In this document: in pieces, positions 2,737 through 63,064 of the stretch
How the letters are laid out: each line of letters starts with the position of its first letter
How positions within the stretch are numbered: the stretch's first letter is position 1
NCBI GenBank assembly: GCA_035084275.1
Contig: CM068747.1
Location: forward strand, 23,188,001-23,252,000
Source: Hydrolagus colliei
Taxonomy: Eukaryota
Direction: 5' to 3'
Length of the DNA: 64,000 nt
Position numbers and translations under genes: made by a program
Notes under the pieces: generated by a model
What the model was told of the DNA's origin: nothing
The model's input: the letters and a program-made list of their open reading frames with translations, nothing else
The model's database searches: none

Positions 2737-3496
2737 GTAGCAATTTGCCAGATTCAAATAACTTGGCATTTATTAAGGAGTTTTCATTGATAGCCAGGTA
2801 CTGTATATGTTTACCAATTTTAAGGCAAAGATGGAGAGAAACAGTTCACCTATTTCCCTGATCTGGATTTAACCCCAAATCCTAGCGAGGAAAGGTCAGC
2901 ATTCCAGTCTGCGGTTCACTAACCTGATAAATTGAATTATACTGTGTTGTTTGTGGTGCATTGCGCTCATTTTATTGATGAGCCACAACGAGTTATGCGA
3001 AGTAAATCAAAGCTAATGAAATCGGTGCAAGAATTCTGCCTCTCAAAAACCTAACTTCAATCACTCTGTTATTGTATAAATGCAACAGCCGTGAATAATA
3101 CTGGGCTCCGCTCCTCTGTGGCTCCTTGAAAGCTCCCAGGCAATCCATTGGGCAGCCAATCAATAGACCCTTATTGTAATGTCATCAAAGAGGTGATCAT
3201 CTCAGCTGTAATATTAATGCTTAAATTCCTAATGAAGTGTTCTGTGCATCAACAGAAATCAGATGCTTATTTTGAATGGGGTTAATGGAATATAAATCCA
3301 ACATCCTGTCCCACAACACTGTACTACTGCAAGCGAAGCCACATCCCTTTCAATATAGGAACGCAGTAGACATGTGTACCGTGTAATATTATTTCTCTGT
3401 GTTCTTTTTGATGAAACAAACTTGATGAAATGTTACTTGATTGCATCAAATCAATGAGAAGTGAAGTTAAAAACTGAACTAAATTAATTCTGACAG

Positions 3497-4027
3497 GGAG
3501 AAAACATTATCTCTACCCAACGATCACTCGTGGAGACTGGTTTGAAAGCGAGCTATCAGTCACTGGACAGCTGTAAGCAAGAGAGGAAGGTGGAAACTTC
3601 ATCAAAAGCCACTCTGGACTCAACAACAGTGATGAAAGGAAGCCATGAGCTGGATTCCATACTTGTTAGCATAGATCACAGTGATGCTTATAGCACCAGC
3701 AGAGCTGCTGTAGAGGATTCCCAGACAGTAACAGATAACATTACAATCTCCTCTGAAAGAGAGATAATGAGTGTTCAAAGTTACACTGCCACCTTTTCAC
3801 AGCAATTTAGTGTGAATGCATCCCACGGACAATCACTCTGTCGATCAGTGGTTGCCACTGATTCAGGAAGGAGGGTTTATGCCCTTCAGCTGATAGAAAA
3901 CAAGGCAGAATCCACAACACCTTCTGACATCAATCCAGGGACATCATTGCCCGTTTCAGCCAAGATTCCTCGAGATAATGAAATGGAAGAGAATCCATAC
4001 ATCACTCAGACGCTTGAGGAACAACAG
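3497..4027 (+). CDS. CCDC141: CCDC141 Ser/Thr-rich exon (alternative in-phase donor at 4042)
   Basis: ttctgacag|GGA acceptor in frame with ORF 3530..4150; phase-0 donors CAG|gtgtca (4027) or TAT|gtaggt (4042). Confidence 0.6.
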
Positions 4028-4609
4028 GTGTCACACAAATATGTAGGTATTTCTTTAAAACCCTTCTTAATGTTAGAAGGGAAAAGGGTCATACAGAATG
4101 CTCCAGAACTACCCCTGCTCCTGGCTCGGTCCTGGGATCTTTTGTTGTGAAGCGCTCTGAGACGCCGTCCGGTGTGGAGGGCGCTATATAAATCAAAGTT
4201 GTTGTTGTTAACAGTAGCAACACACCTCACACTCCGCTCAAACCTATTGCAATCTCTAACTTTCCTTTCTCACGCCCAGCAACAAACTAGCTCTAGAATA
4301 ATTACATTCTAGCTACTACTGAATATGACTTTAATATATCCAATGGTGCCAATAAATATGAAGGATAATATTCGACAGAAGGTCATTTGCACTATCATTG
4401 GGTTAATGCACTTAGGCATCATAAATTCCTTATGGAAGATTACCAATTTCTATAATTTACTTCTAAAATACTTATTTGGATTTTTTTTGCAATCGATCGC
4501 CATGAACATGTACACTCATGAATCTGCATGGCATCCACCAACTCCATAGATAAAGTATTGAAGTGTTAATTGTTCAAGAAAAAAATCAAATTAATCTGTG
4601 ATCTATCTT

Positions 4610-5340
4610 GGTACATGAGGAGTTTTTTCACAAGTTTTTTGAGGAGTGGGGTGATGGCAGCAGTTTTAAGGGGGCAGGGACTGATCCTGTGGAGAGGTAC
4701 TGGTTGATGATGTCAGCCAGCAGTGGGCAGAGGAGGGGGAGCTGGGTGACCAGTAACTTGGTGGGAAGTGGGTCGAGGCAGCGGGTGGTGGACTTCATTG
4801 ATGTGATGGTGCGTGAGAGGGAGGAAGGAGAGACGGGGGAGAAGGAGTGTGGGAAGGGGGTTGTGGTAGGAGCTGATGACGGAGAGAGTGAGGGGGACGG
4901 AATGGGGGTGGTGGTGGGCGACAAGAGGCAGAAGGATGACGCTGCCTGGCGGATATTGTGGATTTTGGAGGAGGAGAAGTCCATGCTTCCTCGCACTTCG
5001 CATTCGAAGTGAAGATTGAGGAGGCCTGAGGGGGCGCATGGAGGAGGTGGTGGGTGGTGGAAAAAAGGACTTTTGGGTTGTTTTTAGCCTACAAGATGAT
5101 AGTTGAGTAGTAGGCTGTTTTCGCGCGTGATAAAGAACAGCGGTAACTGTGGAGATGCTCGAGCCACAGTTGGTGGTGAACCGTCAGACCAGTTTTCTTC
5201 CACCTGCGCTCGAGCAGCTGGGTTTGGGTTTTTAGAGAGTGGAGATGAGTTGTACCAGGGGGAACGGGTAGGTTTGGAGATGGACCTAAAATGCCGGATT
5301 TCAGGGGGACGAGAAAGTTAGAGGCTAATGCAGCTGTGAG
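4610..5340 (-). mobile_element. L2-clade LINE ORF2 fragment
   Basis: Minus-strand STTRCLDPLPTKLL...LADIINQYLSTGSVP matches the pre-RT segment of L2/CR1 ORF2; frameshifted. Confidence 0.8.
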
Positions 5341-5939
5341 GATGAAACATCGGCTTAATATTCTTTGGGGGTTTGGGGGAACCTTCAGGGGGAATTTTTC
5401 ATTGGATGAAAAATAAATTTACATAATAATAATGATCCTTGCAATTGATATAGCGCTTTTCACATCTTCTGGACGTCTTAAAACGCTGCACAGAATATAC
5501 TGTAAAGTGAATTGACTATATTTTGTGGGCAAAACCCGGTAGCCAATTGTGCACAGCAGTGTCCCCACAAACAGTTGTGGATTTATGTTCGTATCTGGAT
5601 TCTAACCATAATTTATTGTGGTTAGATCAATGCCAGCCCTGGGGTTGGGGGGAGAAGGAAATCCCTTTAACTGTTATCATATCGCACATTGTTATTTCTG
5701 CTGCCAAACAAAATGTCTTGTGATGGAATCATATTGCTCTCCCTAGTTTTCCAGGGAATGTTTCATCCTGAATGGCGACAGACACAACCCACAAAGCACG
5801 AAGAGGGAGGGTATGTGCAGAGTTTGAGGAGGGTAGGAGGGGTGATGCTTCTGTAATGTTTATGTTAAGTGAACTCCTTCTGCTTTCTCCAATGTATCAA
5901 ATTGTAATTTCCAATTTCTTCCCCCTGTTTATTTTCAAG

Positions 5940-6934
5940 GAAATTTTAAACATTAAGATGGACCGACTGACAAACCATCAGATCACAGAATCGGTGGCGT
6001 GCGATCGATATTCACAGGAAACTACTGAGCATCTCTGTTCTTGGACAGAGGGCAGCACGGTGACTGACGGAGTCCCGCAAACTGAACTTTTAGTAGACGA
6101 AACCCTATCGGTGGAAGAATATGAATGCATGTCACCAGACGACATATCTTTGCCTCCGCTTCCTGAGACTCCGGAATCGAACATGCTCCATTCTGAAACC
6201 GAACTGGATGAGGTGTCCCAATTAAGTTCTCATAGTCGGCATTTTGGATCTCACAGTGCAAAGCCACAAATGGAAATGGACTGGAGCAGAATGACTGATC
6301 GCTCTGATCCAGTAACACCTGTTGCCACGGCTGACACCATAAATCATTCAAGACCGCAAGCTTCTCATGAGCCTGACTATTATTCATCCCGCTATTCAAC
6401 TCCCTGCACCGGACCCTCCCCCGCGTACAGATCTGAGCCTTCCTCTTTTATCCAGCACCCACTGACCATCCCTGCACCCACTCTCGTTTCCAGCACCCTT
6501 TTGAATATCGCGGCATCCCAAACCGTGACTAAATCCTCAACCCGTGATGCTATCTGTCGAGTGCATGAGACTCAGCTGCAGACCTACGATGTGCATGAGA
6601 GTGCGATTGAGACCCAGCAGTCACTACTGCATGAATCCAAGAGTGACCGGTTTGCAAACCAAACGGATTCTAACAGCAATGAATTCCATGTTTCAACTGA
6701 ATCACTAACAGCACCCCTCGGTGTGCGCCCACCCATGCATGACACCGCAGGCCACCACAGAGAAACCATCATCCGGGAGGGCATTCGAGATCCATTGAAC
6801 TACACAGCTGTGCGCTGCCTGACTGGCACAACACCAAGCTTCTCCAAGCTCTTATCTAATGTCAATGTGGTAGAAGGTTCTCCTGTGACCTTGGAAATAG
6901 AAGTAGCAGGATTCCCAGAACCAACTTTGACGTG
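5940..6934 (+). CDS. CCDC141: CCDC141 large exon: low-complexity region plus N-terminal half of the Ig I-set domain
   Basis: ttttcaag|GAA acceptor; EEYECMSPDDISLPPLPETPES and PSFSKLLSNVNVVEGSPVTLEIEVAGFPEPTLTW are CCDC141-like motifs; TG|gtgggt phase-2 donor. Confidence 0.88.
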
Positions 6935-8288
6935 GTGGGTAGCCTATAACAAGCAGCAGTAATATCTACATTGCATTCAGTTGGAGGTTCAGCATGAACT
7001 TCTGACAATGGGGCCTGATTTTATTTTCAACTTTGTTCCATTTCACGATGCAATTGCGAACCAAATCGCTTTGCTTTGTAAACATTGGTATTTTCTGTTT
7101 CTGAAGCCAATGTAACAAAAATGATGTCCAAATTAGGTGCAACCGTAAGCTAAACTACAAACCAGGAAATTATCCATACATCATAAGTAAAGTGGAGGAT
7201 GGATAATTTAGACTTATAAAAAAGAAACCCATACATAAGAAAAGTAATATTAATACCACGATAGACATTCACCAAAAATGCACGATACGTTACAGTAAAT
7301 CCTGTAAACCGCTTTGCGATATTTTAGCTGCGTAATTAGATACAATATTGAATGAAGGAGTAATAGAATTATTATATCATGAAGTCATTTCATAGAATAT
7401 ATTTTGCTGCAAAGGTGAATATATTATGTACATTGCACCACCGCCAAGTAATTCTCATAAATGATTCGCAGTCGTCGAATGGTAATTGTTTAGTTCAATG
7501 GCAACACACCACTTTCATGTTGTCTACAGTATGGATCAGGATTCATCCATGCAAAACCTTAAATTGACGGGAGAAAAATAACCATTACCATTCCAATGTT
7601 TCTGCCATCATTTCTCCTCATAGGGGAGAAAGGGTAAATCTGGGACCAACTTGGCAGCCTTCTCCCAAGTCGTACATTCCTATATTTCTAAGCAAATTTA
7701 AAATTCTTACTCGCAACAGATGACAATAACTTCACAAAAGTGATTCTTGGAATCTCATAATCCTTTAAGCTTCAATTTTTCATAACATTTGGACTTGCGT
7801 TAAGTCACTGAATTTGATATCACTGATTGTGCTCCGTTCACCGGTTTTGATGGGGGTTCGTGGTTTGAAGGAATACAAAGGTGAAGAAACATAACAATTA
7901 TAAAGAGATTTGGAGGCCCTGGAAGATTGAAGTAAACCTTTGCATGCTTTTGTCACACAGCTAGGAAACCAATGATAATTTTAGGATGAGAATGAATCCA
8001 TTATAAATCACCTCCATCTTCCAGAGGCACAATGAAAATATGAACCGCAAATCTTTGCAACTTTGAATATATTTCCAAAATCAGGTCCCGAGTTATCAGT
8101 TATTTAAGATTGTTACTAACACTTAACTTATTTTAGAGTTAGTTTGTCGTACTAAAAAATGTTACATACTTTGCTTATATGCAGTTAATATAAAATTCAT
8201 ATTCTGTCTTTTTAGATGTTCTTGTTTTAATCAGGTGTTTAACTGGTGTTTGTAACTGCTTGACTTGAAAATGCACTCTTTACTTCAG

Positions 8289-8595
8289 GTACAAGAATGG
8301 ACAGAAGCTGACAACAGATCAGCGCTTAGAAGTTTCACAAAAGGAAGGCAAACACATTATTTTCATTCAGAAGGTGTCTGATAAAGATTCAGGCATTTAT
8401 GTTGTACGAGCTATAAACTCTAGTGGCACTATCAGTTCCACTGCTATACTTCAAGTACAAGGTAAATGCAGTCTCGGATGTTTCCACACTGATCTTATAG
8501 ACTGGCTCACCTTTCCAGCCTGGCTGTGTATAGTGTGTGTTGGCTTGTTTCTAATGTATACATGTTTATTTAACTGTTATGTATCACTGTTTTGA
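8289..8595 (+). CDS. CCDC141: CCDC141 terminal exon: C-terminal half of the Ig domain plus hydrophobic tail
   Basis: cttcag|G completes Trp; YKNGQKL...DSGIYVVRAINSSG...LQVQGKC...YVSLF-stop; AATAAA at 8626-8631; internal phase-1 donor CAAG|gtaaat at 8461. Confidence 0.88.
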
Positions 8596-8625
8596 TTACA
8601 TTGATGTTTTTCACCTTGTACTAAA

Positions 8626-8631
8626 AATAAA
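8626..8631 (+). terminator. Polyadenylation signal for CCDC141
   Basis: AATAAA 30 nt after the TGA at 8593-8595. Confidence 0.55.
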
Positions 8632-10159
8632 GTTGGTACCTGTCCTTACCACAAGTAATATCACAATGCAATGTTTCAATGCACTACCTCTGCACTGCAA
8701 AATAGTTTTGAATGTTAACTTTTTTATCGAAAACTCCAAGTTTCACTGAAATGCTGGTAAATGTTAATAATGTAATTTAAAATATTGACTGTTATTTCTC
8801 AGTAAGATATCATAATATTCCAGTACCCATGCACAATATTAATGGAATTGTACTGTTAATAACACAATCAGTGACACTGATTAAAACCTTCACTGTATTC
8901 GTTCACATTCACAGTAGTGTTAGCACAAAAACTGAGCAATTTGACTTGACAAATTAATTTGCACACTTTCTGATATCCTTATCTGTTTGCAAAGAAACAT
9001 TTTTGAAACTATTTTTATGACGAGTTTAAACCTATCTATATATTTTAACATATGAAACATTTTTTCTGAGAATTTTTTTATCTTCCTGATACTGTTTGTG
9101 TGATATGTTTTGGAATAGATGCAATGGAAAATTATTAGGTGGAATTTTAGATGAATAGGTAGTGGAGTGTGTTAATGTTATTATGCACTGTGCACAGAGC
9201 AGCAGCAAATGTCCTGTGTTTTCCCCCAATCTGGTGATAGAGTATACATTTGCAATCTGATAGCAAGACAGTGGCTGAAGTCTGGGAACAAAAGAGAATG
9301 CCTGCACTCTCAGCCAATCTACCAGTCAGAAGGAAGGGAGTAAAATAAGAATTTACAATCAATGAAGGTTCAACATACTGTAAGTTATGACAAAGACTAT
9401 AGGGAAGTCATACAAAAAAGCATTTAAAGCAAATAAATTCTGAGGCTGCATTGACTAAAGTATACATCGGATCACCAATATACTGTAATTACATTTCAAT
9501 CTTCTATTAGGATGATGGAAAGGCTGTGTATCCCTAAAATGAATTGCATTTCCCCCTGCATATTTCCCTATACAGCTTTGCAATGCGTTGACAACACTTT
9601 TATCAACAATTTATTGGTGCACTTGTATTGGTTCCTGGTATTGTCACTGTTTTCCATTGTGTGCATTGTAGTATAATTCCTCACCTTTGGTTCCACTCAC
9701 TCTGAGACCAATGAAAATCCAATTTATTGAATCTGGCCTTCGATAGTGGAATGGTATCCAATTTAACGAAACTGACTAAGAGACACTGAAACATGCAGCG
9801 TTAACACAATGCACTTTCTACTCTGCTCGTTGCAATGAAAATACACTGGACACGCTGGCCTGTTTCGAGTCCGACTTACATGGAGGTTGGATCAAAGGTA
9901 GCTCACATTAAAAATCACTTCTGATGTTCATATTTTACAATTTAAATTAATTCCTACGTATGAAAGATGGCATGAATGCAGTTCCTCTCCCACATCAAAC
10001 AAAACAAGGCAAACTAAACAACATGCGATAAGCAGAGATTAACTTATGTTTTTTTTCTTATTTTTACATTTTGCTCTTGTAAATCAAAAAATTTAATTAA
10101 AATTAGGAGTATCTCCCTACGTCTCCCTACGTACATGTTCTACTGGTGCAGCAATATAT

Positions 10160-10370
10160 TATAGAATGTTACGGCACAGAAGGAGGCCATTCGGCCCATC
10201 GAGTCTGTACCGATTCTTTGACCGAGCAAGTCACTTTCATTAACCCCAATCACCAGCTTTCTCCTCATAACCCTGCAAACCTGTCTTCCCCAGATACCTA
10301 TCTAGTTCTCTGTTAAAAGCTGCTATCGAATCGGATCTCACTACCCTTTCAGGCAGATCATTCCTATGGG
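10160..10370 (-). mobile_element. CR1 LINE 3' tail fragment
   Basis: ATAGAA...CGGCACAGAAGGAGGCCATTCGGCCCATC is shared with the CR1 tail at 61335. Confidence 0.7.
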
Positions 10371-13300
10371 TTACCAGTGGTAACTTTATGGTCTATGGTG
10401 TCAGATGTCATCTGAAGGCAAGGCTCGTTTGTTTAATTCTGTTAACTCTGGTACAGCACATAACAAATAACAGTTCAGCTGACAACTACACCTGACATTT
10501 CTGTTGTAGCATTCCTGGATATCGTTTGTATAAAAATGCAGTTGGGTGCAGGGACAAAGAACAAAGAGAAAGCAAACTTTGCACAGCTTGACCTCTCAGC
10601 AAGAAATAATAGTGAGGTTATTCTCCTCAACGGAAGTGAATTGAGTTTCATCACACGGTGGTCATGCACACTGCTGATGCATCTGAGGAAACCACTTGCA
10701 TACAATGTTGACCCAATATTGATAAAGTAATCTTTGCATTTGATATAGCGCCTTATCATGTCTTCAAGACGTCTCAAAGTGCTTCACGGAATATATTATA
10801 AAGTGTAGTGACTCTGCAGTGAAATGAGATATTTTATCAAAGTGGCCTCTCTTAAAAAAAGGTGGAAACAGAAGAATATTTTGCTATTAGAATAATGCAG
10901 GAATGTAGTAATGTGACAGGAAAATGCCTTGCAAACTCAAATTTATGCAAACCTGGACAACCTAAATGAACGTGGATGTATTTGCTGCAAAAATATTCCT
11001 TCAAAAGTCAATCCAAAGTAAATGTTTACAGGGGTGGAGTTCATGCGCCTGAGGTGAGAAGCAATAGACTATATTACTAGTCTCAACAAATATACACATT
11101 GAGTGTATTGACCGGTAAAAAATCCAGAGTTGATTTTCATTGTATTAATGTGTCTCCTACTGGTTCAGATATAAAATAAACTTGAGATTATTCATTGTGT
11201 TACTAAGAACTATTATTTTTTTCTCAGATGAGTCTTGTTTCTGTGTAACATATACAATGTAAGGTCTTTGTGTGGCTTTTGTGTCAACATAACAACTGGA
11301 AATTTATAAAAATGATGCGCTAGTCATAATGATAGCTCCCTCACAACCTCACACTTACTCGCAGTATATTGCTCAGTTGGTTGTCCATTCTGCCAGTCAA
11401 ATATACCGGTAATTGATGTTTTTTCTTTAAATCATTGAGCAACAAAGCCAAGTTGCTAGGGTTCTTCAGTTGGGAGAGGACAACTCAGAGGAGACCACAT
11501 AGAAGGGTAGAAAATGTCAAATGAGATTGCAAAAATAAACCCAGATGAATCATTTAGGTTGTTTCAGGACAATAGAATAAGAGGACAAAGGTTCGGAGTT
11601 TTAAAGGATGATTTTAGGACAGATACCAGGAAGATTTTCTTTAGGCAGAATGTAATCAATAATAATAATAACAGTCCTTGCATTTGATATAGAACTTTAC
11701 ATGTCTTCTAGATGCCTCAAAGTACTTCACAGAATATGCTGTAAAGTGAATTGATTGTATATATATGGACAAAACGTGGCAGCCAATTGCACACAGCAGT
11801 GTCTCACAAACAGTTGTGGATTGAAGTGATCAATTTATTATTGGGGTTTCTTTGAGGGATTATTTTGAGGCTTGTGAACAGTGCCAATTGACTGGACTCT
11901 TGACTCATTTAAAAGGCAGCTCGTTTGAGGGAAGGTTGGTTGGTGTTTGGGAGGTATGAAATGGGATGGGCTGAAGTGATTTCTTTATCTATATCAATCT
12001 TGTTATCACACCATTTTCTGGTCTTTTGTTTGAGATTTCCTTCAGCTACAAAGGGCCAAACAATCTCTGCACTGCTTTTCTTGGTGAAAGATGGGTCCAG
12101 GGGGGTGAAGTGCTGTTCCAAATGCAACTGCTCTAATAATCATGGTCTTCTTCAGCCTCTAAAATCATGATACAGTCAGACATTTAATCAAAGCTGAGTC
12201 CAGCATTAAGCAGCAATAGCTCCAGCTCTATGCATACGTGAGCTACCTTACAATTGCTCACAAGCCCTAAAAACCACAACAGCTCAATCATGGTGATTTA
12301 ATTCCTGATTTAATCTTGGATGGATATTCAGATGAGACACTGAAATTAATTTCAGGGACTCTGAAATACGGAAGAGATTAGGGCATTGGGGGTGGGAGAG
12401 ACTAGAAATTAATACAACAAAAGAAGAACTTTTTTAAAAGAAGTTATAGAGATAAGGTATATTCCTGAAAAAAGGAGAATAGCAGAAGGCTGAGACAATA
12501 GTAGGTTAATTGAGGACATCGGTTGTAACAAAAAGGTGCAGAAGGATTTAAAGGACTCAGCGAATCAAAAAATAGTATGAAATAGAAGTCTTATTTAAGT
12601 CTTAATTATTTGAATAAGTATTAGAGAGGCGAAGAAGAAAATAGAAGGATAGGTGAAAGTAATAAGAGGAATAATTTTAAGCTGTGTAGAAAGTAAGGGA
12701 ACTTTAAATGCCCGTCTACTTATGGGAGCAAATTTGTGGTGATCATCAACAAATTCCTCCCAAAGGCTCTCGTGAATGAAAGCTGTGTACAAACTCTAGA
12801 TCTAATCAACAAGGAGTCTTTGGACAGTCTGAATTCTCTGGTTCTATAGGCTGAACAGAAATCAATTCACTTCACTGGCATTTTAGAATTCTTTTAATGT
12901 CCTCAACATCAGAGGGGCCTGAAATTCAATCAAAAGGTAACCCGGCAACTGGCCTAATAACATCCCTTCATTTATTCCACATAGTCAAAACACTACAGCT
13001 GGTATTAATGTCAAATAAATCCGCACAGATTCACGGGAGCATTTGCAAGTAGTGTAGAAGGAAATTGTAAGCTTCACTTTAAAATAAAGAGCTCGACATT
13101 CCTGTCATCTCAATTCCAGTGATCATCTAGACGTGCACAAATAGGGCTGATTGTTGAGAGATTGCATTAATAGATAATGTATTACTGTCGGTTTTCCAAA
13201 CCTTAGAAAATGTTTTCAGTTACAAGGCTGTGAAAAAGGCCAATTTAGTTTAATAAGGTCTACATAAAAGGTATTAGAGTGAAACATAGTACACCAGACA

Positions 13301-14688
13301 CCTCTAATTGAATTATTAATGCTATTTCATGAGTGATTTATTGAAGGATATTAAGGTATCACCAAAGCAGTCAGAAATCTTTGCCCCTGTATGAGAAATT
13401 AATACAGAACAGTCTTACAAAGACATAGCTACATTGGGCTGCATATTGGAGTGAAGAAGTCCCAAGTACATGGAAAGTACTCATTTTAGTACCAATTTGA
13501 TTGCTATTATTTTTGTGCAGGTTTATAGTCAATTTAATTATGCTACAGTCATGAATCTCTGAGAACATTTCTTTGTGAAATGAATTAATGGAGGAGGTAA
13601 TTGTATCATCAGGATTGTCGCTCTATTCACGTCAACAGTCACCAACAGCAGGCGCACACGCAAAGATGCCCTAGAGGATCACATTGCTCATTTCTCGTGA
13701 GCTCTGCAACCGGGCACCATATGGATGTATTAATAGTCGGAACTATATGCCGTTCCTATTTAGTATTCGCTGCCTATTGCATATATTTTATGCGGCTTAT
13801 GCATGCAACTCGTAGTTATTTGGTAAAAAAAAAACACTTATTGGGAAGTGACTTGCTGAAATTGTTCTGTTTGAAAACAAAGTCAATTCCAACACCGTAG
13901 AAGATTAAATGAATCACAAAATGATTGTGTAGAAGTGTATTGAATGGATCATGATAATTAAAACACACTGCATCTCTGTCAAGGGAAAAAAAAGAAACCA
14001 ACAACTTTGCTGTTCGCCGAGTGTGTTTTCACCATCGATTTCCCTATATAGTCTTGAGATATGGGCAAAGCCTGGTATTTGGAGTTGACGAACAAATCAG
14101 CCATGATCTAATAGAATGGCAGAACAGACTCAAGATATGAACGGCCTTCTTCTGTTCCTATATTCCTGTAGATAGAAGGCTTGAAAAATTAAAATTAAAA
14201 TCTAATTAAATAAAGAAATCTAAATTTAAAAAATGTAATTAAACAAACTCTCAGTTAGCTACCAATAGTATTAAAATTCCTTCAGAACCATCCCTGGAAT
14301 TAGCATTTTAACTCTCTACCAGCACAATCCTTTCAGTACAAGATATAGGCTATTGATAAACAGTGGATTGTATTGTGGTAAGTGTATTGCTAAATTGATC
14401 AAACTGGCAACTTTTTCCTCGGTTCTTCTTTATCTGAAACATTCAATTTTCTTTCCGTTATAGGAAACCCATCTGTGAAAATTAATCAGGAGTAATTTGC
14501 ATGGCCTTGTTTATTACAGTGGATGATTCTCTGCACGCTCTCTGTCTTTCTAATAAAGCATTTTATTCAAAAGAAGATCCTTGTTCGAGAAACTTTATTT
14601 CTAAAAATAACTCTCACTGCTAACCTCATTCCAGCATAATTACCCACAAAATGTATTTTTTTAAAAGAACAATGTCATTTATTTCTAG

Positions 14689-14843
14689 TACAAGACAAGG
14701 TGCCTGACTTTGAAAAGAGATTTGCTGATTGTGTTTTGATGCAAGGGGATGATCTGATACTCCAGTGTATTATATCAGGACAACCCAAGCCAAGTGTGAT
14801 GTGGTTTAAAGATTCCACAGTGCTGTCACCCAGAGATTCCAAT
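14689..14843 (+). CDS. Orphan Ig I-set domain, N-terminal half exon (between CCDC141 and TTN)
   Basis: atttctag| phase-1 acceptor and AAT|gtgaga donor; VQDKVPDFEKRFADCVLMQGDDLILQCIISGQPKPSVMWFKD has the P-F, C..SG.P.P.V.WFK I-set signature. Confidence 0.8.
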
Positions 14844-14965
14844 GTGAGAATCACTTCCTTATATTTTTTGCTCCATTTGCACACTCATTTCGTTAGATAA
14901 TTCAGGTGTAATCTGTTTAGTCCTGCAGCCATTACTGAACGAGTGCAATGTGTTGTTTTGTTCAG

Positions 14966-15095
14966 GTAACAAGTTCAGGTGAAACGCATGTATTCAGGAA
15001 AAGAAACGTTGGCTCAGCTGATAGCGGCTTGTATCGTTGTATTGCCATAAACACAGAAGGTGAAGTGTGCTGCTCTGCTTCAGTAGTTGTTACAG
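14966..15095 (+). CDS. Orphan Ig I-set domain, C-terminal half exon
   Basis: ttttgttcag| phase-0 acceptor; VTSSGETHVFRKRNVGSADSGLYRCIAINTEGEVCCSASVVVT has the DSG.Y.C.A.N..G motif; ACAG|gtaatt phase-1 donor. Confidence 0.8.
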
Positions 15096-15649
15096 GTAAT
15101 TATGGAATGATTTAATACAATTTAAAAATGTTTGGATATTTCCTGCATTATGTACCACAGTGCTTATCATTAATCCAGTGATGATAACCAGATGACAATT
15201 ATGGATTCAAGATAAAATGCTAACATTCAGGTTTGCACAGAACTAGGAGGATGCTCATTTCTCAGACAGAAGGGTTGAAGATCAGATTGCGATTCAGTGA
15301 CAGTCTCTGGTGACTGGAGCGCTAAAGGTCGAAGCTAATCGTATTATTTCCAAGTAATCGACTGACAAACGTTCTCAATAAACTTACAACACAGAAATTC
15401 TTCAAGCCAAGCTGCTGAATGTGAATGTGTAGCAACTACATGAAGAAGCCTGGGGGAGAAAAAAAACTTCAGCTGAGAACATCAGCCATTATCAGCTCAA
15501 AAATAAACTGAATAATGCCACCTATTCCGGTTATGGTAATCATGGAATTAAATCAATTATAGCAGACAAGGGGGGCCTTTGCACTCTTCAAGACTATCTC
15601 TTCAAGATTGTGTAAGGCTCATCGATTGGGAGCTATCTAAACTAATACA

Positions 15650-16222
15650 ACAACAACATACACTTATATAGTGCCAACCGCACGGGTAGCGTCTCAGAGC
15701 ACTTAACAGTAATGGAGCCTGACTCCGAGTGGGTGGGGTAGGTGACCATAAGCATGGTCGAAAAGGAAGGTTTTCAGGAGGAATATGAAAAAGGGGAGAG
15801 AGGAGAAAAAGCGGCAGGATTGAGGTAGAGTGTTCCAGAGCTTTGGGGTGTAGTGGTTGGAAGCGCGACATCCAATTTTAAGCCCCCTCCCTGCTCTTTC
15901 TCTGCATTGTTATGTATTCTACATCTTCAAATCCTTATCCAATTCCCTTTTTCCACGATTATTATCCCCACCCTCTGGAACTCCATCCCACAGTCCCTTT
16001 GCCTCGCTTCCTCCCTTGTCTGCTTCAAGGCCGGTTTCAAGACCCTCCTCTTTGATCGTGCCTTCTGCTGCCCTCCCACTCTATCCCTCCCCATCTAACT
16101 CTCTCCCTCCCGTTCCCACTACCCTGTCCCTCCGCTTGCTTGGGTCCCGATCTGACTGTTCAGCACCTTGGGACGTTGTTCTGACATGAAAGGTGCTCTA
16201 GAAATATAATTTTGTTGTTGTA
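15650..16222. mobile_element. Back-to-back L2 3' end fragments
   Basis: A minus copy starting with (CAA)n, then a plus copy LWNSIPQSL...FKAGFKTLLF ending in (TTG)n. Confidence 0.65.
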
Positions 16223-17020
16223 TTATAAAGACAATCCCCCAAACATTCCAGAAAACAGAATCCAAATAGTGTATAATGAATACCTTAGAATTGGATTTGA
16301 TTTCCGACTGATTGTTACATCTACACTAATCTCTCTTCCACATTCATGACATCTAAAAAACATTAATTAGATGAGTCTCCTAATGATTTGACTGCCTCCC
16401 TATTGTTCTCTTGAGAAATGCAAGCAGAAAAGGTAGGCATTTTTCAAGTTGAAAAATGTAGGCGTGTATGAGTTTACACCGTTCAACCTTATCGTTGATT
16501 TGCAAGTGCTAAGCAATGTTTATTTCATTAGTTTGTCACCCTTAATATCATATAGCATCATCAGTACAGACATATATTGTCATAGTTAATACTTAGGTTT
16601 GTGTTAATATTTAAGTGGCAGTTTATGATGAATGATGCTGTAAAAATCCAATTTTCTCACAGAAAGCAGTAAAACAGTCTGCGAGCTTTCATGATGGGTA
16701 TAAAACACTTAACCTCTAATTCTATATTTTAAACCATTTACTTCAATCAAACTTCTCCTTGTTGAGGGCAAAGGGTATTTGACTTGTCATTTGAAATCAT
16801 ATCCTATAAGATAGGTTTGACACTAATATTTAATCATATTACCAACTAGACCATCAATGCAAAAACAACTACAGTATTATAATGGCTATTTTGTCTAAAT
16901 CCACAGAATTTAAAAAGATCCATATAAAACCAGTACAGCGTGAAAAATGCCTAATTGATGAATTTATACGCAATTTGGGGAAACATTTCTAATTCCACTT
17001 GATCTCAATTGCCATTTCAG

Positions 17021-17183
17021 AAAACACTAAAGGACAACTATGCACTTTTATCAAGGACACTGCTGAAAAAGGTCGTAAACATATGACAATGACAGTAACA
17101 ACTGAATCGGCTGCAAATCTGAAATGCCTTGCAGCAAGTTATATAAAAGGCCAAAGATCAGAGATTGGACAAGTTCAGTTGGG
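17021..17183 (+). CDS. Candidate linker exon (phase 1 to phase 2)
   Basis: gccatttcag| acceptor; stop-free ENTKGQLCTFIKD...EIGQVQL; GGG|gtaggt donor; phases bridge the orphan Ig to TTN exon 2; no recognisable domain. Confidence 0.4.
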
Positions 17184-18594
17184 GTAGGTTATTCAACGTC
17201 TATTTATGTGGCAGCTGATGCCTTTCAGTTTGTGTCACCATGGCACACATAGGACAATCCTTCAAAATGCACATAACCCTTTCATATCAGATTAAATGCA
17301 AAGATACTATAACAAAGTGAAGCAACACTGCATTGGAGTGTCAGTCAAGACTGTGCGCTACCAACTGAGCCATGCTGATCCCTTTACAGTATATACATAC
17401 GTTTCTCTCCTCTTTGACTATGCCTTCGGCCACGCTCCGACACTGCAGGCACTCCACTCTCCCTGATCCCAATCTCCCCCCATTCGGGTCCAAATTCCTG
17501 ACTGTCCAGTGCATTGTGACATCCTCCCGATGTGAAAGTTCTTATACAAATGTTATTTTGTATTGTGTGTGGGTGTATATATACATATATATATATGTAT
17601 ATACACAGTTCACTTTACAATATGTTTTGTGGAGCTCTTTGAGAGGTCTCAACATTGTGAAAAATTGGAGGGATTAGGCAAGGGTTGTTAGTACATGTAG
17701 TTTGAAATTGAAAATCTGAAATGTGAGGCGTTGAAGTATTCATTGTGGAACTACAGAGCACCCTGATGGGTTTACCTACATAAAATTCCTCATCTTAATT
17801 TTGCCTGGTAAAATCATCAACATCTCAGCTTTCGATTTGGTGTTAATAGATTTCGATTTGTTAGCAGAATTGTATTTTTATTGTAATGCAACATATAGTA
17901 ATTTTTTTTACTAATTTGATTAAGATGTAGCTTGCAGAAGTATAATAAACAGTTTCTCATGAATAGTTTCTACTAATAAGTTGAAAGTAGTGTAGTTTTA
18001 TATCTCATTATATTTTAACAAGTTAACCTTCAAATCAACCAAAGCAATTGGCCCCTCATTACGTTTCAGTCCACTTTTACAATGAGATAGAATTACACAT
18101 CATTATATCTTATGCCCCTTTGAATATGTTGAGCGTCTTTGACTACTTACAAATACAAAAAGAAACAATTGTGGAATCCCCCACAAAAAATATTTCTGTA
18201 GTTTGGAGTTTCTCTATATTTGGAAACATTTGAATTAGATTTGCTCTTTTGTAAATAGAAGAGTTTTGCGTTTGGTTTGGTGATTGGCACATACAGTTGC
18301 TGGTGTCCATGTGTCAGAGGAGCAAAATGGTCTTGAAATTGATTGACAGCGACAGATAGGACTTGTGCATTCAAATGCGCCCTGTTGCTAAGGGCTTCAT
18401 TCTTTCCTTATCAGTTTTGGTGATAACAAGAATATAGTAAGAATACAGTAAGAACCGACCAAGGAAAGGGTCTCAGATACATAGTCTGTTGTTACTTGAA
18501 CTGAACTTAGTCATCGTGAGCAAGGTGATGGAATAGAACTAACCCTCAGAACTTAATGCGACAAAATTAGCACTGTCTGCATAAAAGTGAAGTG

Positions 18595-18740
18595 ACTGAC
18601 AGCTGTTGGGTTCCATATAACGGATCCCTTTCCCATGAAGCCTTCACGGAGTACCCAATCAGAGGTCTTGGGGTAATCATGCTGCATAATTATCAGTAGA
18701 GCTGTGGTATAAAAGGTAAAACGACCATGTTAGCAATTCT
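18595..18740 (+). promoter_or_regulatory. TTN: Titin core promoter
   Basis: TATAAAA at 18708-18714 about 27 nt before the conserved exon 1 start; E-box CAGCTG at 18600-18605. Confidence 0.75.
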
Positions 18741-18957
18741 GAGCGGTTCAGGCACTCCCAGCCTTGCCTCGGGTGTAGGGATTGCATAGGAAAATTAAAA
18801 CTACACCCAGACCACAGCCTGCGTGTAGTTTTGTTTCCTTTTAGTAAGAAGTATACCCATTCTCTCGGTGGATTGTTGAAAAATATCTGGATAAGGAGGC
18901 AGTTTCCAAACCTATATTCCATAGGGCTTGGCCCATTTACTTAGGCACTCTTGAAAG
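18741..18957 (+). other. TTN: TTN exon 1 (non-coding 5'UTR)
   Basis: CCCAGCCTTGCCTCGGGTGTAGGGATTGCATAG...AAAACTACAC...GTGTAGTTTTG...TTAGGCACTCTTGA closely resembles the mammalian TTN 5'UTR as recalled; AAG|gtcagt donor; start position approximate. Confidence 0.85.
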
Positions 18958-19049
18958 GTCAGTAAATTTCTGTTTCTTACAAAGTGGCGTTTTGTTCCTC
19001 TTGGTTCTTTGTTTAATTGAAGTTTTTTTTTAAGACAAGTTTTTAAGTT

Positions 19050-19580
19050 GTATCATATTCCCTCAAGTATAAGTGCCTCGGGAGCAGGAAAAGTGAATTT
19101 GAAATATACATTTTTAAACTTTGATCACTTAATTCACACGTTAGTCGGTCTTTTGTGTATGAAATTCATCATTGGACAACGATCAGTGTTGAAATATTTG
19201 GAAACAAACTCTGTTTGGGAAAATAGCTAGAAAATAGCTGTTTAATTAAATGAGGGAAGCCTAAAAGACAACTGTAACTTTTAAAATTTTCAAGGTTAGG
19301 CTATGGATGGATGAATTGAGGACTGCTAAAAATAGTGCTGATGATATGCATGTGGCATCAGTCAGGCAGTGATGACTTTTTAAGGGAATCAGTGTATGAG
19401 CTATTATTTGTACCACCAGCTATGTGGCACTTGTCCTCTGTCAATCATTGACATTTGGCTAAATTTAAACCCCAGCTCTTCAACCCCAAACCAGCTGATC
19501 ATCGCTTATACAGACACCATGGTTCAGATTTAGAAAATGTTGCAAGCTCACTTACATTCCAATAAAGAACTACAAGTGGT
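19050..19580. promoter_or_regulatory. Putative muscle enhancer in TTN intron 1
   Basis: Perfect MEF2 site CTAAAAATAG 19326-19335; MEF2-like CTAAATTTAA 19459-19468; NKX2/E-box CACTTG 19428-19433 and CAAGTG 19573-19578; E-box CAGCTG 19492-19497. Confidence 0.55.
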
Positions 19581-20339
19581 GCAACATAAAGTTGTTTGTC
19601 AAAGTTACTGGATTGTTGGCATTGTATATATATATATATAATACCAATATATATATATTGGTATTTCATTGAACATAATATTTGCTATATCCTTTTTTTA
19701 ATTGTGCAATTTAATTTAAATAAATGATTTATTTCTGATTTGATTTGAAAGATATTTTTCTGTTTCTTTCCTGAAAATACATTGATCAGAAAAATATCAA
19801 GCACTTATTAACACCTTTGCCTGCATTTGGACAACAAATATGATCTGTGATCATAGCAGGGCCAATCTGAAGTCATAATAATCATTGCATTGGATATAAA
19901 ACCTTTATCATGTTATTGAGACAGGTCAAAGCGCCTCACAGGATATGCTGTAAAGTTGTGTAACTGTGTGTATTTTGTAGGCAAAGTAGAAATGTTACGT
20001 ATCACAAGTTTGTTTTATCTCTTTTTATAACGTCCAAAGCTTTTCAGTATCACCTGTTTTAATAGAACTGTGTCACAAACAGCTCGAATTACGTCCCATA
20101 AGTATCTATGGGGTTTATCCACACGCTAATGACTCACACCACAACTCCATCTCACATTACATAGCTCTGTCATAAGATAAAGAATAAAAGAAGAACATAA
20201 CACATGGAAATATCAAGATTAAATCTTCTTCAATATGAGGGCGAACTGCACACAATTTTAATGTTTCCTCACTAGAAACAGCTCAAAGGGGAAGAACTAT
20301 TTTAAATCATTGCCGCTAGTCAGCCAAATGCTGTGATTT

Positions 20340-20820
20340 ATGTTGCTCGCATATTTACCCAGACCAGACTGTTTACCCCCATCTCACCAGTTTTGCCCGG
20401 GCTCCACTGGCTCCCCATCATCGAACAAATTGACTAAGATCCTCACACTCGTGTTCAAATACATTCACTACCTGGCACCTCCCTACCTGTATGACCTCCT
20501 CATTTCCCAATCCACCACCCGATGCCTCCGCTCAACTGGGACCAGTCTCCTACTTGTCCCTCGCACATTGCACTCCACCAATGGAGGTCGCGCTTTCAGC
20601 CAATATGCCCCCCAAACTGTGGAACACTCTCCCTCAATCCCACCGCCTTGCCTTCTCTCTCGCCTTTTTCAAGTCCTGCCTGTAAACCTTAGTTTTCAAA
20701 CACGCTTATGGTCACATTCATCTGCCTCCCCACCGGCTCACAATCAGGCTCCCTAACTTTTAAGTGCTGTGAGACGATACCTTGCGCGGAGGATGCTATA
20801 TAAGTGCAAGTTGTTGTTGT
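20340..20820 (+). mobile_element. L2 LINE 3' end
   Basis: KILTLVFKYIHYLAPPYL...RCLRS...GGRAFS...PKLWNTLP plus a GCTATATAAGTGCAAGTTGTTGTTG tail. Confidence 0.85.
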
Positions 20821-20990
20821 ATAAGGCACTTTTGTGAAGTTAACTACACTGGTATAAGAATCTTATTCATTTTATTCTTTTAGACAATTATTCTACACAA
20901 AACTCGCATGTATAGACAATACGTTTCACTAGTAGAAGTTCTTTGTAGTTAACCGACGAATTTCTGTTGTGTCTTAGAGTGCCTACCAAA

Positions 20991-21081
20991 ATGGCCACAC
21001 AAGCTCCGACTTTCATACAACCGCTTCAAAGCGTTGTGGCACTAGAGGGTAGTGCCGCAACCTTTGAAGCGCATGTTGCCG
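20991..21081 (+). CDS. TTN: TTN exon 2 coding part (Z1 N-half; exon starts at 20978)
   Basis: gtcttag|AGTGCCTACCAAAATG; 91 coding nt; GCCG|gtaagt. Confidence 0.95.
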
Positions 21082-24000: not shown

Positions 24001-27000
24001 GGCCTCGGTTTTACATTTCATCCAAAGGACGGCACCTCTGACACTGCAATGCTCTCCCAGCACTGCATTGGAATGTTAGTCTAGGTTATGAGTTCACACT
24101 AGACTCAATGCTTAGCCAAGGGATGAAAACTGCACTCCTCACTTGAGCCTCCTTTGGATTCTATTCCATGTTAGACACAGTTATGTGTGGAGCTCAATGA
24201 CTCAACTCTTTATTCCGGCCAAATCTTAAGGCCGATGGTGCCATCTGGTGGCTGTGAATGTTGTGACCAGTCCGCTCAATATGCCATAAAATTGAGAGGA
24301 CACTTTGGATATGCTCTAAATTTGAATCCAATTGTATTGTTTCTCTCCTCTTTGTCAATTGTGTCACTACTATTCGGGAAGTGCCAGCTCTGATGTTAAT
24401 AGTTTGTCTTCCAGATATGTTGGTAATTCACTTTGTGACCATTCAAATGGACTGCCGCAGATACCAAGTTCTACTTGGCAACAATTAATTTTGACGTGTA
24501 CATTTGTGTACATTACAGTGATTCTGTAAAATGCAAGAATTATTATTGTTCTATTGATGCAGAAAAGCAAACATTATTATTTGGTATTTCTTTGACGCAA
24601 TAACAGCAACAACAGCAGCGACAACTTGCATTTGTATTGCGCCCCCTTCACGCAGGACGGTGTCTCAGAACAGTTCAACGTCAGCAATTGATGCATATGA
24701 TTGACAGTTTTACTTGTTGATTGCGTCTTTGTTTCAGTCAATTCACTGTACAGTATATTTTGTGAAGCGCTTTGAGACGTCTAGAAGATGTTAAAAGCGC
24801 TATGCCAAATGCAAAGATTATTATTATATTATTAAAACAATTTATTTTTCTAGCTCTGTGTCTCCGGCTGGACGACTGTCCACCTCACCCATCAGATCCG
24901 TTAAATCTCCCCTCCTGACACGCAAATCTCAGACCATGACAGCCACCGCAGAATCCTTACCTCCTTGGAAGCAGGAAGATTACGTTTCCGCGAGCGAATT
25001 GAGGATGAGAGAAAGCAGGCTGTCCACCACAACCACAAGCAGCATTCACAGAGAAGAAAAGTGGGAGGGGAGATACGGTCTGCACGGTCAGACATTCATC
25101 ACCGGAATGGCTGGCTCTGGAGGAGGAATTGCCATCGCTGAAGGAGTTTCCATGGCTGCTGGTGCTGCTGGTGCTGCTGGTGCTGCTGGTGGTGCTGCTG
25201 GTGCTGCTGGTGCTGGTGCTGCTCGTATTGGTGGTGGTTTCAGTGCTACCAGCATTGGTGGTGGTGGTGGTGGTGGTGTCAGTGGCTTCAGTGCTACCAG
25301 CATTGGTGGTGGTGGTGGTGCTGTCAGTGACTTCAGTGCTACCAGCATTGGTGGTGGTGGTGGTGGTGTCAGTGGCTTCAGTGCTACCAGCATTGGTGGT
25401 GGTTTCAGCGCAACCAGCATTGGTGGTGGTGGTGGTGGTGTCAGTGGCTTCAGTGCTACCAGCATTGGTGGTGGTGGTGGTGGTGCTGTCAGTGACTTCA
25501 GTGCTACCAGCATTGGTGGTGGTTTCAGCGCAACCAGCATTGGTGGCGGTGTCAGTGCTACCAGCATTAGCGGTGGCGGTGTCAGTGGTTTCAGTGTCAC
25601 CAGCATTGGTGGTGATGTTGGTGGTGTCAGTGCTGCCAGCATTGGTGGCCGTGTCAGTGCTACCAGCGTTGGTGGTGGTGCTGGTGCTGGTGGTGTCAGT
25701 AGTTTCAGTGCTGCCAGCATTGGTTCCTCTAGTGCTATCAGAACCACTACCGTGTCCATGGTTTCCGGAGGCATCCGAACGACCGAAGTATCTGGCGCTG
25801 CCAAGGCTGCCGGGCTTTCCGCAGCGGCGGGAGGCGCCCGAGTTGCTGGAGTCACCATCGTCGATGGAGCTGCTGGAGCCACTGAAATCTCCCGAATTTC
25901 CGGTTCTGGTGCTGCTGTTGGCACTGTGGTTGTCGGCACCGCGGTTGCCGGCAAAGAGGTGAGGACCTTTTTTTTCCCCTATTGTTGTTGTTGCATTTTC
26001 ATCAAAGCATGACCCAGCTCTGACCAGCAAAATTAGAGATTTATTTTAAATTTTATTTTAGGTGATTCAGCTAAATTCTAACCCGGTTTTATTCTGAGTC
26101 TTTGGGCACAGGTGTAATGGGACGGATTCATTTCCAAGCCATGTTAAAGATGGATTCAAACGGATCAATTCAAGATTAAACCCGAACCCTGCTTGAGTGT
26201 GTTTAGCGAAACACGTTTATATTAGTAGTTGAGACTTGAGAGTGGCAAATGATTTGGATTGTTCCTTTAATGTGTATGTATGTACTTGCATCTGCATTTT
26301 GGAAATCACCCGTATGCCTTCATTCGAAAGTGAATACAAACATTTTGAATGTGGGAGGCAGCCTAGAGACTGTTTAATGTTTAGCTACGTGACCTACGTA
26401 TATGCAAAATCAATCTATTTTGCTGTGAAAACCAATTCAGACACAGCATGACCTAGAGAAAACAACAGCTTTAGCTACTGTACTTGCTGCCGTTGAGCAA
26501 GCCAGAGTAAGAGCGCCTGTGATTGCTGCAACCGACGCAGAAAGACGTATCACAGAGAAAGACAAGTCTACAGAACAAGCACAACTATTTCAGGATCAGG
26601 TAGTCTGAACACTCACAACTCATTTTAACTGGCAACTTTCTTTGACCCACGAACCCAGACTTGTAATTTATTTCACAGTCACGTTCACGCAGGGAGCTTT
26701 GATAGCTATCACATCCTTAAACCACCTAGTTTCACCAGTACACTCCTATCCATTGAGAGTGATTTTTGCATGCAGTTGTTGTGCTATTTTAGACTATTTT
26801 GCACAAAAATATCTATTGGAGAGTCAAATGTATTTCTGTGTATTGTGCATTTTGCTGCCAAAAGCAATACCAATTTTTTATATATCTCTTTATTTTTTTA
26901 TTGGAAATGTGGCCCCGAAATCCTCAAACTTTCTTTTATTTTAAAAACTGTTTAGAAACCATGTTTTGGATTGGTAATTTTGCCAACTTTTTACCACAAC

Positions 27001-61334: not shown

Positions 61335-62290
61335 ATCATAGAATTATACGGCACAAAAGGAGGCCATTCGGCCCATCTAGTCTGTGCCGGCTCTTTGAAC
61401 AGAGCAACTCAATCCTGCTGCCCAGCTTTCTCCCCATAACCTAATAGACCTGCTCTTCCTAAATAAAGATCTAGTTCCCTTTTAAAAGCTGTTATGGAAT
61501 CTGCCTCCATCACCTTTTCAGGCAATGCATTCCAGATTCGAATAATCCGCTGAGTGAAAAAATTTCTCCTCAGCTCCCCTCTACTTCGTTTTGAAACTAT
61601 TTTAAATCTGTGACCACGAGTCACTGATACGCCCACGAGTGGAAACAGTCTTTCCCTATTCACCCTGTCGAAACCTCTCATAATCTTATAAACCTCTATT
61701 AGGTCTCCTCTCAATCTTCTTTGTTCTTTGTTCTAGAGAGAATAAGCCTAGCCTATCTAGCTTTTCCTCATAGCTGAAGTCCCTCATTCCTGGTAGCATC
61801 CTAGTAAATCTCCTCTGCACCCTTTCGAATTTTACACAGTACTCCAGGTGAGGCCTAACCAAAGTCTTATAGAGGTACATCAGCACTTCCTAACTTTTGT
61901 ACTCTATACCTCTATTTATAAAGCCTAGTATCCCATATGCCTTCTTAACGGCTTTGTCTACCTGTCCTGCCACTTTCAAAGAGTCACTAACACAAATCCC
62001 CAGGTCTCTCTGTTCCTTCACACCCCTTAAAATTGTACTATCTAGCCTATATTGCCTCCCCTCATTTCTTCTACCAAAGTGTATCACTTCACACTTCTCT
62101 GCATTAAACTTCATCTGCCATGTGTCTGCCCACTTTACCATTTTATCTAAATCCTCTTGCAGATGGCTACTATCCTCCTCACTATTTACTATTCTCCCTA
62201 ACTCAGTATCATCTGCACATTTGGAAACCGTACTTCCTAAACCCAAATTCAAATCATTAATGTATATTAAAAAGAGCAGTGGTCCCAAAA
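61335..62290 (-). mobile_element. CR1 LINE, 5'-truncated (RT C-terminus and 3' end)
   Basis: GPLLFLIYINDL...ADDT...[29 protein letters not shown] and [11 protein letters not shown]...TRGH...FFTQR..WNALP; frameshifted. Confidence 0.93.
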
Positions 62291-63064
62291 TATAGTTTGA
62301 ACAATTTTAATATGGAGTACTGCAGTATACCTAGATGTGTTCTTGTTGAATGATTATTGTTTCTTAGTTAAAACCTTTAAACTAACTTTAGCCTTGATCA
62401 TAAACTCATGCATGTTTTATTAGTTTTGTAGTCTGATAACTGAGTTCAGCACCTCACCATATGACAAAGCTCAGGTACAGAAGTTTGCTTTCAGGCATTG
62501 ATTTGTATTGATGCTTTATTCAATATGCAAGCTCATTCATTGAGTTCAGAATTTTAAATCTTTAAACAGAGCAGATATAATGAATTATTTTCTATTTGTT
62601 ACTAAGGCTGAAGATTTGAGTTAACTAACCATACTTAACTCATTGTGGAACGTGACAGCTAATTTGTCAAACGGTTGCATATTGTTAGTTAACTTAGCAA
62701 GAAAATACTGGGAAAAATGTACCAAGTTGATTTCTAAGATTCTACTTTTTAATCTCAGCAGTTGAAAGATGCCAGTTTTTAGTTTTTCTTAATTATGGAT
62801 AGAGGATATCTAAAATGGTCTTATCTTGTGGAATAGTTAGACACTGGGTACTTCTAAGTTGTGGGTTCTGAGATGCCGTCCGGGGTGCAGGGCGCTATAT
62901 AAATCCAAGTTGTTGTTGTTGGCTGCGTACTTTGATGTTGGATTCCATGAATTATATTAACATTGTGTGTGACCTGAAATGCTTTGTACTGTTTATATCA
63001 TGGCAGCAATGAATTTGAGTGCTCGTTACCCTACACCAGACATTGGAAGCTTAGCATTTCCTTT

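Follow-up and report, generated by a model that had tools for sequence, protein, structure and literature searches.

A second immunoglobulin domain of CCDC141 encoded upstream of titin in Hydrolagus colliei, and a candidate in-frame path from it into titin

The window, a stretch of 64,000 nucleotides from Hydrolagus colliei (contig CM068747.1), contains two exons between CCDC141 and titin (TTN) that form a single immunoglobulin (Ig) domain of the I-set type. These exons very probably encode a conserved second Ig domain of CCDC141 (Ig2), which is likely to be used through a splice from the donor at 8461 to the acceptor at 14689, an event that would swap the transmembrane tail of the protein for Ig2 and a 54-residue tail encoded by a third exon (exon C). 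Ig2 is already present in automatic gene models of other vertebrates; what is new is the third exon and an in-frame route from it into titin.

Exon A (14689-14843; forward strand, as for all CCDC141 and titin features described here) runs from phase 1 to phase 0 between the acceptor TTTCTAG| and the donor AAT|GTGAGA and encodes strands A to C', including the cysteine of strand B (CysB). A GT-AG intron of 122 nt (14844-14965) separates it from exon B (14966-15095; acceptor TTCAG|, donor ACAG|GTAATT), which runs from phase 0 to phase 1 and encodes strands D to G with CysF and CysG. The joined frame is open and yields one I-set domain. In a scan with the Pfam I-set profile (PF07679), exon A matches model positions 1-44 of 90 with 35.8 bits (E 8.7e-9) and exon B positions 50-90 with 24.4 bits (E 3.1e-5), each of them exceeding the curated cut-off of 23.7 bits. 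The scan thus bears out an earlier sequence-only reading of the window, which had described a complete two-exon I-set domain with canonical splice sites and a 122-nt intron. That reading also placed the domain accurately: the stop of the transmembrane form of CCDC141 at 8593 lies 6.1 kb upstream (given there as 6 kb), and the TATAAA at 18708, a candidate titin TATA box, lies 3.6 kb downstream. Its view of an intact, conserved domain agrees with the open frame and with the orthologues in other vertebrates. The I-set hallmarks of Ig2 (C26, W38, and D70/G72/Y74/C76) are present in 39 of 39 distinct Ig2 sequences.

On strand E, encoded by exon B (14966-15095), Lys63 (39/39) and Arg64 (37/39) of Ig2 are conserved as well. 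I-set domains usually place a hydrophobic core residue at that position, and the Lys63-Arg64 pair is a possible binding patch peculiar to Ig2.

The two exons stand out from their surroundings. When profiles of CCDC141 Ig1 and titin Z1, made without Ig2 itself, were run against the 582 six-frame open pieces of 8462-20977, exons A and B were the only ones to reach E<0.05, and a titin Z2 profile matched exon A alone among the same pieces. No additional Ig exon was found in 8462-20977 by this profile search. The Ig2 DNA is single-copy in its own genome, where the next-best protein match is 42% identical. Exon A by itself is a poor query: a word-based search with it gave 2 candidates and no match, and a HMMER search returned 150 multi-Ig giants, the direct orthologue not being among them.

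The upstream part of the window belongs to CCDC141. Aligned to the genome, the Callorhinchus milii CCDC141 protein can be followed one exon after another, beginning 36 kb before the window and continuing inside it, with identities of 66-95%. The large exon at 5940-6934, 81% identical to C. milii CCDC141, carries at its end the first half of Ig1 (I-set positions 1-32 of 90) and has a phase-2 donor. The exon at 8289-8461 encodes the second half (positions 35-90 of 90, E 3.4e-11) and ends at a phase-1 internal donor, AAG|GTAAAT, which ranks in the top 1.2% of GTs by an approximate donor matrix. Reading through this donor gives a transmembrane-type tail (8462-8595, stop at 8593) with a mean hydropathy of 2.1 over 19 residues, similar to the tails of most shark and ray CCDC141 models. 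The splice from 8461 to 14689 is in frame (phase 1), and the path 5940-6934, 8289-8461, exon A, exon B, and exon C contains no stop.

Passages of a study of mouse CCDC141 (PMC12657953) place its transmembrane isoform 2 at the nuclear envelope and the Z-line and an anchor-less isoform at the M-line or A-band, and report that the Ig end of the protein binds titin. The 8462-8595 read-through form corresponds to mouse isoform 2. Splicing of 8461 to 14689 would replace this transmembrane tail with Ig2 and the 54-residue tail (17021-17187), and the resulting two-Ig form, having no membrane anchor, would be soluble and, by comparison with the anchor-less mouse isoform, would probably reside on the sarcomere instead of the nuclear envelope or membranes. 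The tandem of Ig1 and Ig2 would lengthen the titin-binding end of CCDC141. As described in passages of PMC12657953, mammalian CCDC141 likewise has a spectrin rod, an Ig1 spread over two exons, ends with or without a transmembrane tail, and TTN as its neighbor. It differs in having one Ig domain, as the sequence-only reading had noted and as passages of both PMC12657953 and PMC12198301 state; its anchor-less form truncates Ig1 and adds no Ig2, and these passages of PMC12657953 describe no stop-free path into titin.

Ig2 is widespread in gene models. The CCDC141 set comprises 120 of the 475 matches to the large CCDC141 exon, plus cluster members; all entries are automatic models, their rows represent isoforms rather than independent species, and groups were assigned from source names. 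By BLAST, with 10 rows lacking Ig1 left out, Ig2 is found 1-5 residues behind Ig1 in 58 of 159 Ig1-bearing proteins among the matches listed. In these, the window Ig2 is 41-61% identical to Ig2 in rows with a full match, versus 19-31% to Ig1; five alligator models with an insertion show 33%, and two rows contain a half-domain. The HMM tally, which took rows of at least 500 residues bearing Ig1, finds Ig2 in 59 of 187 models among the matches listed: 1 of 42 from chondrichthyans, 11 of 14 from non-teleost ray-finned fish, both of the lungfish models, 45 of 78 from sauropsids, and none of the 36 amphibian or 15 teleost models. The Ig2-bearing lineages among the models listed are epaulette shark, sturgeon, gar, bichir, lungfish, and sauropsids. 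Many automatic CCDC141 models from jawed vertebrates other than mammals have this Ig domain immediately after Ig1; it is not "stranded" between two genes, as the sequence-only reading had put it.

A tree of 73 rows unites the Ig2 rows in a single clade (100/98), separate from Ig1 and from the titin Ig domains; within it, the window Ig2 is sister to the shark Ig2 (100/99), and the deeper forks are not separated. Taken with the tally, this clade indicates that CCDC141 of jawed vertebrates other than mammals ordinarily includes Ig2, although annotation seldom shows it. The sequence-only reading had asked for such a phylogeny and had named annotation as a standard CCDC141 exon across vertebrates as the finding that would count against it; this is largely what the models show, amphibian and teleost models apart. 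Mammals are absent from the 120 proteins listed. Gene models of amphibians, teleosts, and mammals apparently no longer include Ig2 and exon C, absence from models not being equivalent to genomic loss.

The sole chondrichthyan model with Ig2 among the 42 listed, that of the epaulette shark Hemiscyllium ocellatum (XP_060684102.1, P0134), has the common order Ig1-Ig2-tail; its Ig2 is 61% identical to that of the window and its tail is homologous to exon C. All three C. milii CCDC141 records are without Ig2, which, together with the count of 1 in 42, points either to scarcity of the isoform in cartilaginous fish or to thin sampling of it there. A two-Ig CCDC141 isoform is presumably made, probably at a low level in this group. 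Equivalents of the long shark protein include the models of gar (XP_015214533), lungfish, sturgeon, turtles, lizards, and birds; they are automatic, all of them end after the tail, and none runs on into titin. The literature outside subscription papers yielded no description of a second CCDC141 Ig domain, of exon C, or of a stop-free vertebrate fusion.

Two groups of models show further variation. In a bird model (Lagopus leucura isoform X5, P0062), Ig2 is left out: the phase-1 donor behind Ig1 is joined to the phase-1 acceptor of the homologue of exon C. In the window, the equivalent skip from 8461 to 17021 would be in frame. Frog CCDC141 (P0088, P0055, P0069, and their cluster members) retains the transmembrane tail but appears degenerate in the second half of Ig1, with profile scores of 67-103 for full-length frog tails versus 135-169 in other groups.

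Exon C (17021-17183; acceptor CCATTTCAG|, phase 1; donor GG|GTAGGT, phase 2) contributes 54 codons that continue the frame of exon B as a linker or tail. Read-through of its donor meets a TAG stop at 17185-17187, followed by ATTAAA at 17291 and AATAAA at 17944. In a tblastn search of 15096-21000 with the 54-residue tail of the epaulette shark, the best match is 17032-17172 (E 0.014), and none of 2000 shuffled controls did as well. A tail profile built from other species only ranks the exon C frame first of 206 pieces (E 0.005; next, 0.9). Six bony-vertebrate tails used singly gave no match to exon C, with shuffle fractions of 0.09-0.69. The exon is close in length to the sauropsid tails, with which it aligns nearly without gaps, and most Ig2-bearing models run on into a tail of this type.

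The stop of exon C is formed inside the donor itself. No other donor of the exon scores as high; by the approximate matrix it falls in the top 1.1% of 1407 GTs, and a donor of such strength contains only 30 of the window's 3280 stop triplets. Exon C ends 10 residues past an anchor Gln (anchors picked by eye), and the models of gar, alligator gar, and bowfin and one from lungfish end at this column too; their last residue is K or R, as an NN|G codon followed by a stop would allow. In 8 of 11 sauropsid models this column holds R, and most of them run on; the shark model ends one residue beyond it, and three lizard models are offset by one. Codability of the model ends by NNG does not discriminate.

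Ig2 has cysteines on strands B, F, and G in 39/39, 39/39, and 38/39 distinct sequences, spaced by 50 and 11 residues, and Ig1 of CCDC141 has none at B or F. A single-sequence structure model of the shark orthologue, standing in for the spliced Ig2 of the window, is all-beta (pLDDT 70), with the triad cysteines on predicted strands; the top PDB match in a fold search with it is an entry of titin M10 with obscurin Ig1 (E 8e-4). The same cysteine arrangement, the CysB-CysF-CysG triad, is described for the elastic Ig domains of the titin I-band in passages of PMC5766482. Unlike these, Ig2 lies N-terminal of titin. By analogy, the triad might imply that Ig2 bears mechanical load.

No run recorded as RNA was found to match the stretch. 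One run (X1), from another organism and RNA by guess, was compared with 3300-17000, short of exon C, at 80% likeness. Its long pieces (3578-4037, 6003-6775, 8288-8576, 9507-9805, and 14709-14843) fall mainly on CCDC141 exons, and three more are intronic, on or beside repeats. Since pieces end to the base at the predicted splice sites 8288 and 14843, they are read as spliced RNA. One contig of depth 2.7 aligns with 14709-14843, the alignment stopping exactly at the 14843 donor and leaving 82 letters of the contig unaligned; it has 4 differences in 135 letters, a lower rate than in neighboring CCDC141 exons (36/460 and 82/773). The contig for the transmembrane tail extends to 8576. Among the rows listed, in a junction table dominated by repeats, no X1 read or contig spans 8461-14689, 14843-14966, or 15095-17021; the lack of X1 cover over 15182-15638, behind the GNYGMI stop, carries no evidential weight. 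The run weakly supports transcription of exon A in a relative.

The isoform could end earlier, with exon B as its last exon. The sequence-only reading had noted that read-through of the 15095 donor gives GNYGMI and a TAA stop (15113-15115), with AATAAA at 15377 and 15502; these elements are as it stated, delimiting a candidate minor end at 15096-15507, and could terminate the main two-Ig form. Sturgeon and paddlefish models (P0013, P0014, P0015, and P0165) end in ..VTGN or ..VTDG and two lizard models (P0044 and P0054) in ..VIGN, six rows in total, all within two residues of the GNYGMI point, so that judging by these ends such a read-through form may exist. However, the 15095 donor is strong, in the top 0.8% of GTs by the approximate matrix, a conserved homologous exon follows in frame at 17021-17187, and most Ig2 models enter its tail, which makes this an improbable main end; the two-Ig isoform proposed in that reading is supported, and exon C had escaped it. 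There is far less room for the view that the exons are a silent relic of an ancestral fused gene, their splicing lost in this lineage. It would fit the absence of Ig2 from 41 of 42 chondrichthyan models among the matches listed and the faster evolution of Ig2 (about 60% identity to sharks, versus about 82% for Ig1), but three exons that remain open, agree in phase, and have strong splice sites, an intact core and cysteine triad, and the few differences in the X1 contig all argue against it. That the exons belong to a separate small gene, or are a recent duplicate of a titin Ig domain or an upstream titin exon, is largely refuted. The generic I-set likeness to titin and obscurin domains is in its favor; against it, start codon and first-exon features are absent, the phase-1 acceptor at 14689 fits the CCDC141 donor, the domain groups with Ig2 of CCDC141 while its best other match in the genome is only 42% identical, and exon B is out of frame with the canonical titin acceptor.

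The two-Ig CCDC141 isoform is compatible with a further, more tentative reading, in which the donor at 17183 is also spliced to the titin ATG exon (20978-21081; acceptor TTAG|, Met1 at 20991), producing one chain of spectrin repeats, Ig1, Ig2, linker, Z1Z2, and the rest of titin. The 13 bases that precede the titin ATG read (G)VPTK in the phase-2 frame, so the join with the phase-2 donor of exon C would read G-V-P-T-K-M, and the six-exon path from the CCDC141 exons through A, B, and C to 20978 enters Met1 through a canonical acceptor, in frame and without a stop. At least 5 residues before Met1 are available in 28 of 102 titin Z1 matches, mostly genomic ORF calls. The four preceding codons are V-P-x-x in most of these fish and bird-type records, 25 of the 28 having V at -4, 24 having P at -3, and 19 having R (from an AG|R acceptor) at -5; by these counts, titin records of fish and bird type preserve an in-frame leader of 13 nt. 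The query included the leader, yet 102 of 107 candidates passed, so any filtering for it was slight. The burial of the exon C stop in a strong donor, the four non-shark models that end at the exon C column, and the R found there in 8 of 11 sauropsid models also speak for such a bridge, as do invertebrate chains that unite a CCDC141-like N terminus with Ig runs and an RNA spanning human CCDC141 and TTN (Labeit 2006, as cited in passages of PMC12657953 and PMC12198301); human spanning exons may have been described in that work.

On the other side, the searches, which for proteins covered at most 2000 residues, turned up neither a transcript nor a protein model in which exon C is united with titin. 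The Ig2-bearing models all end short of titin, and among the 28 titin records none of the upstream extensions of at least 15 residues resembles the tail behind Ig2. The V-P leader could instead reflect nucleotide-level conservation of a 5' untranslated region, and teleosts, whose models are without Ig2, retain it; the shark model and three lizard models are displaced by one residue from the exon C column; poly(A) hexamers lie downstream of exon C; and the papers present the vertebrate locus as three genes. It is possible, though doubtful, that such a chain is still produced in cartilaginous fish and probably also in gar, lungfish, and part of the sauropsids; titin Met1 would then be internal, a nesprin-binding rod would sit at the Z-disc end, and the V-P codons would code for linker.

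Other junctions with titin were considered and rejected. Exon B spliced directly to 20978 is out of frame and would be in frame only with a weak tandem GAG at 20980, and a shortcut from the 6934 donor to 20978 yields a TG|A stop in the window. In a GenBank protein of Larimichthys crocea named "Titin" (P0333, 1601 aa), the CCDC141 exon with half of Ig1 is joined in frame to the titin ATG exon (..LTW-VPTN-M..). Upstream of that exon in the window, TATAAAA at 18708 is a candidate titin promoter and the MEF2-type site CTAAAAATAG at 19326 a candidate muscle enhancer of intron 1. The titin 5' region also contains low-complexity open frames, a 362-residue Thr/Ala/Asn/Gly repeat on the reverse strand (24960-26045) and a Val/Leu repeat on the forward strand (25009-25959), and 61689-62306 on the reverse strand holds fragments of what we take to be a LINE-type reverse transcriptase frame.

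A fused arrangement has precedent. Passages of PMC12198301 name an ancestral SESTD1-CCDC141-TTN gene "connectitin" and describe one Ig domain in human CCDC141 and several in zormin; in the searched text of a study of elephant shark titin (PMC12241362), CCDC141 is not mentioned. Connectitin and Drosophila zormin/Sls share with the window a colinear order of spectrin repeats, Ig, linker, and Ig pair; in contrast, the passages of PMC12198301 have the bilaterian connectitin split into three genes. HMMER searches find single chains with a CCDC141-like N terminus and Ig runs in Saccoglossus (E 6e-121) and insects. In the insect layout of Ig run, linker, and Ig pair, the last Ig domain of the pair ranks titin Z2 first or second of 59. 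Ig2 finds the pre-linker Ig domain of zormin as the best of each protein's own Ig domains in 3 of six insect proteins. With a reciprocal rank of 6 of 59 and no grouping in the 73-row tree, the data do not support tracing Ig2 directly to a single insect Ig domain. A bridged vertebrate chain would resemble the zormin-containing Sls forms of insects, with a rod at the Z-disc end of titin. Ig2 and exon C themselves are probably what is left of the joint between CCDC141 and titin in the ancestral gene.

CCDC141 and TTN have been neighbors for over 500 million years; passages of PMC12198301 (2025) leave the reason for this synteny open; an in-frame path in a slow-evolving jawed vertebrate is a concrete candidate. 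If there is no fusion, the result is a modest one, an unstudied membrane-free two-Ig isoform of CCDC141 that was seemingly lost in mammals. If the bridge is real, CCDC141 and titin may still be one unit of transcription and translation in some tissues, the N terminus of vertebrate titin would not always be Z1, and a single chain could tie nesprin or costamere partners to the sarcomere.
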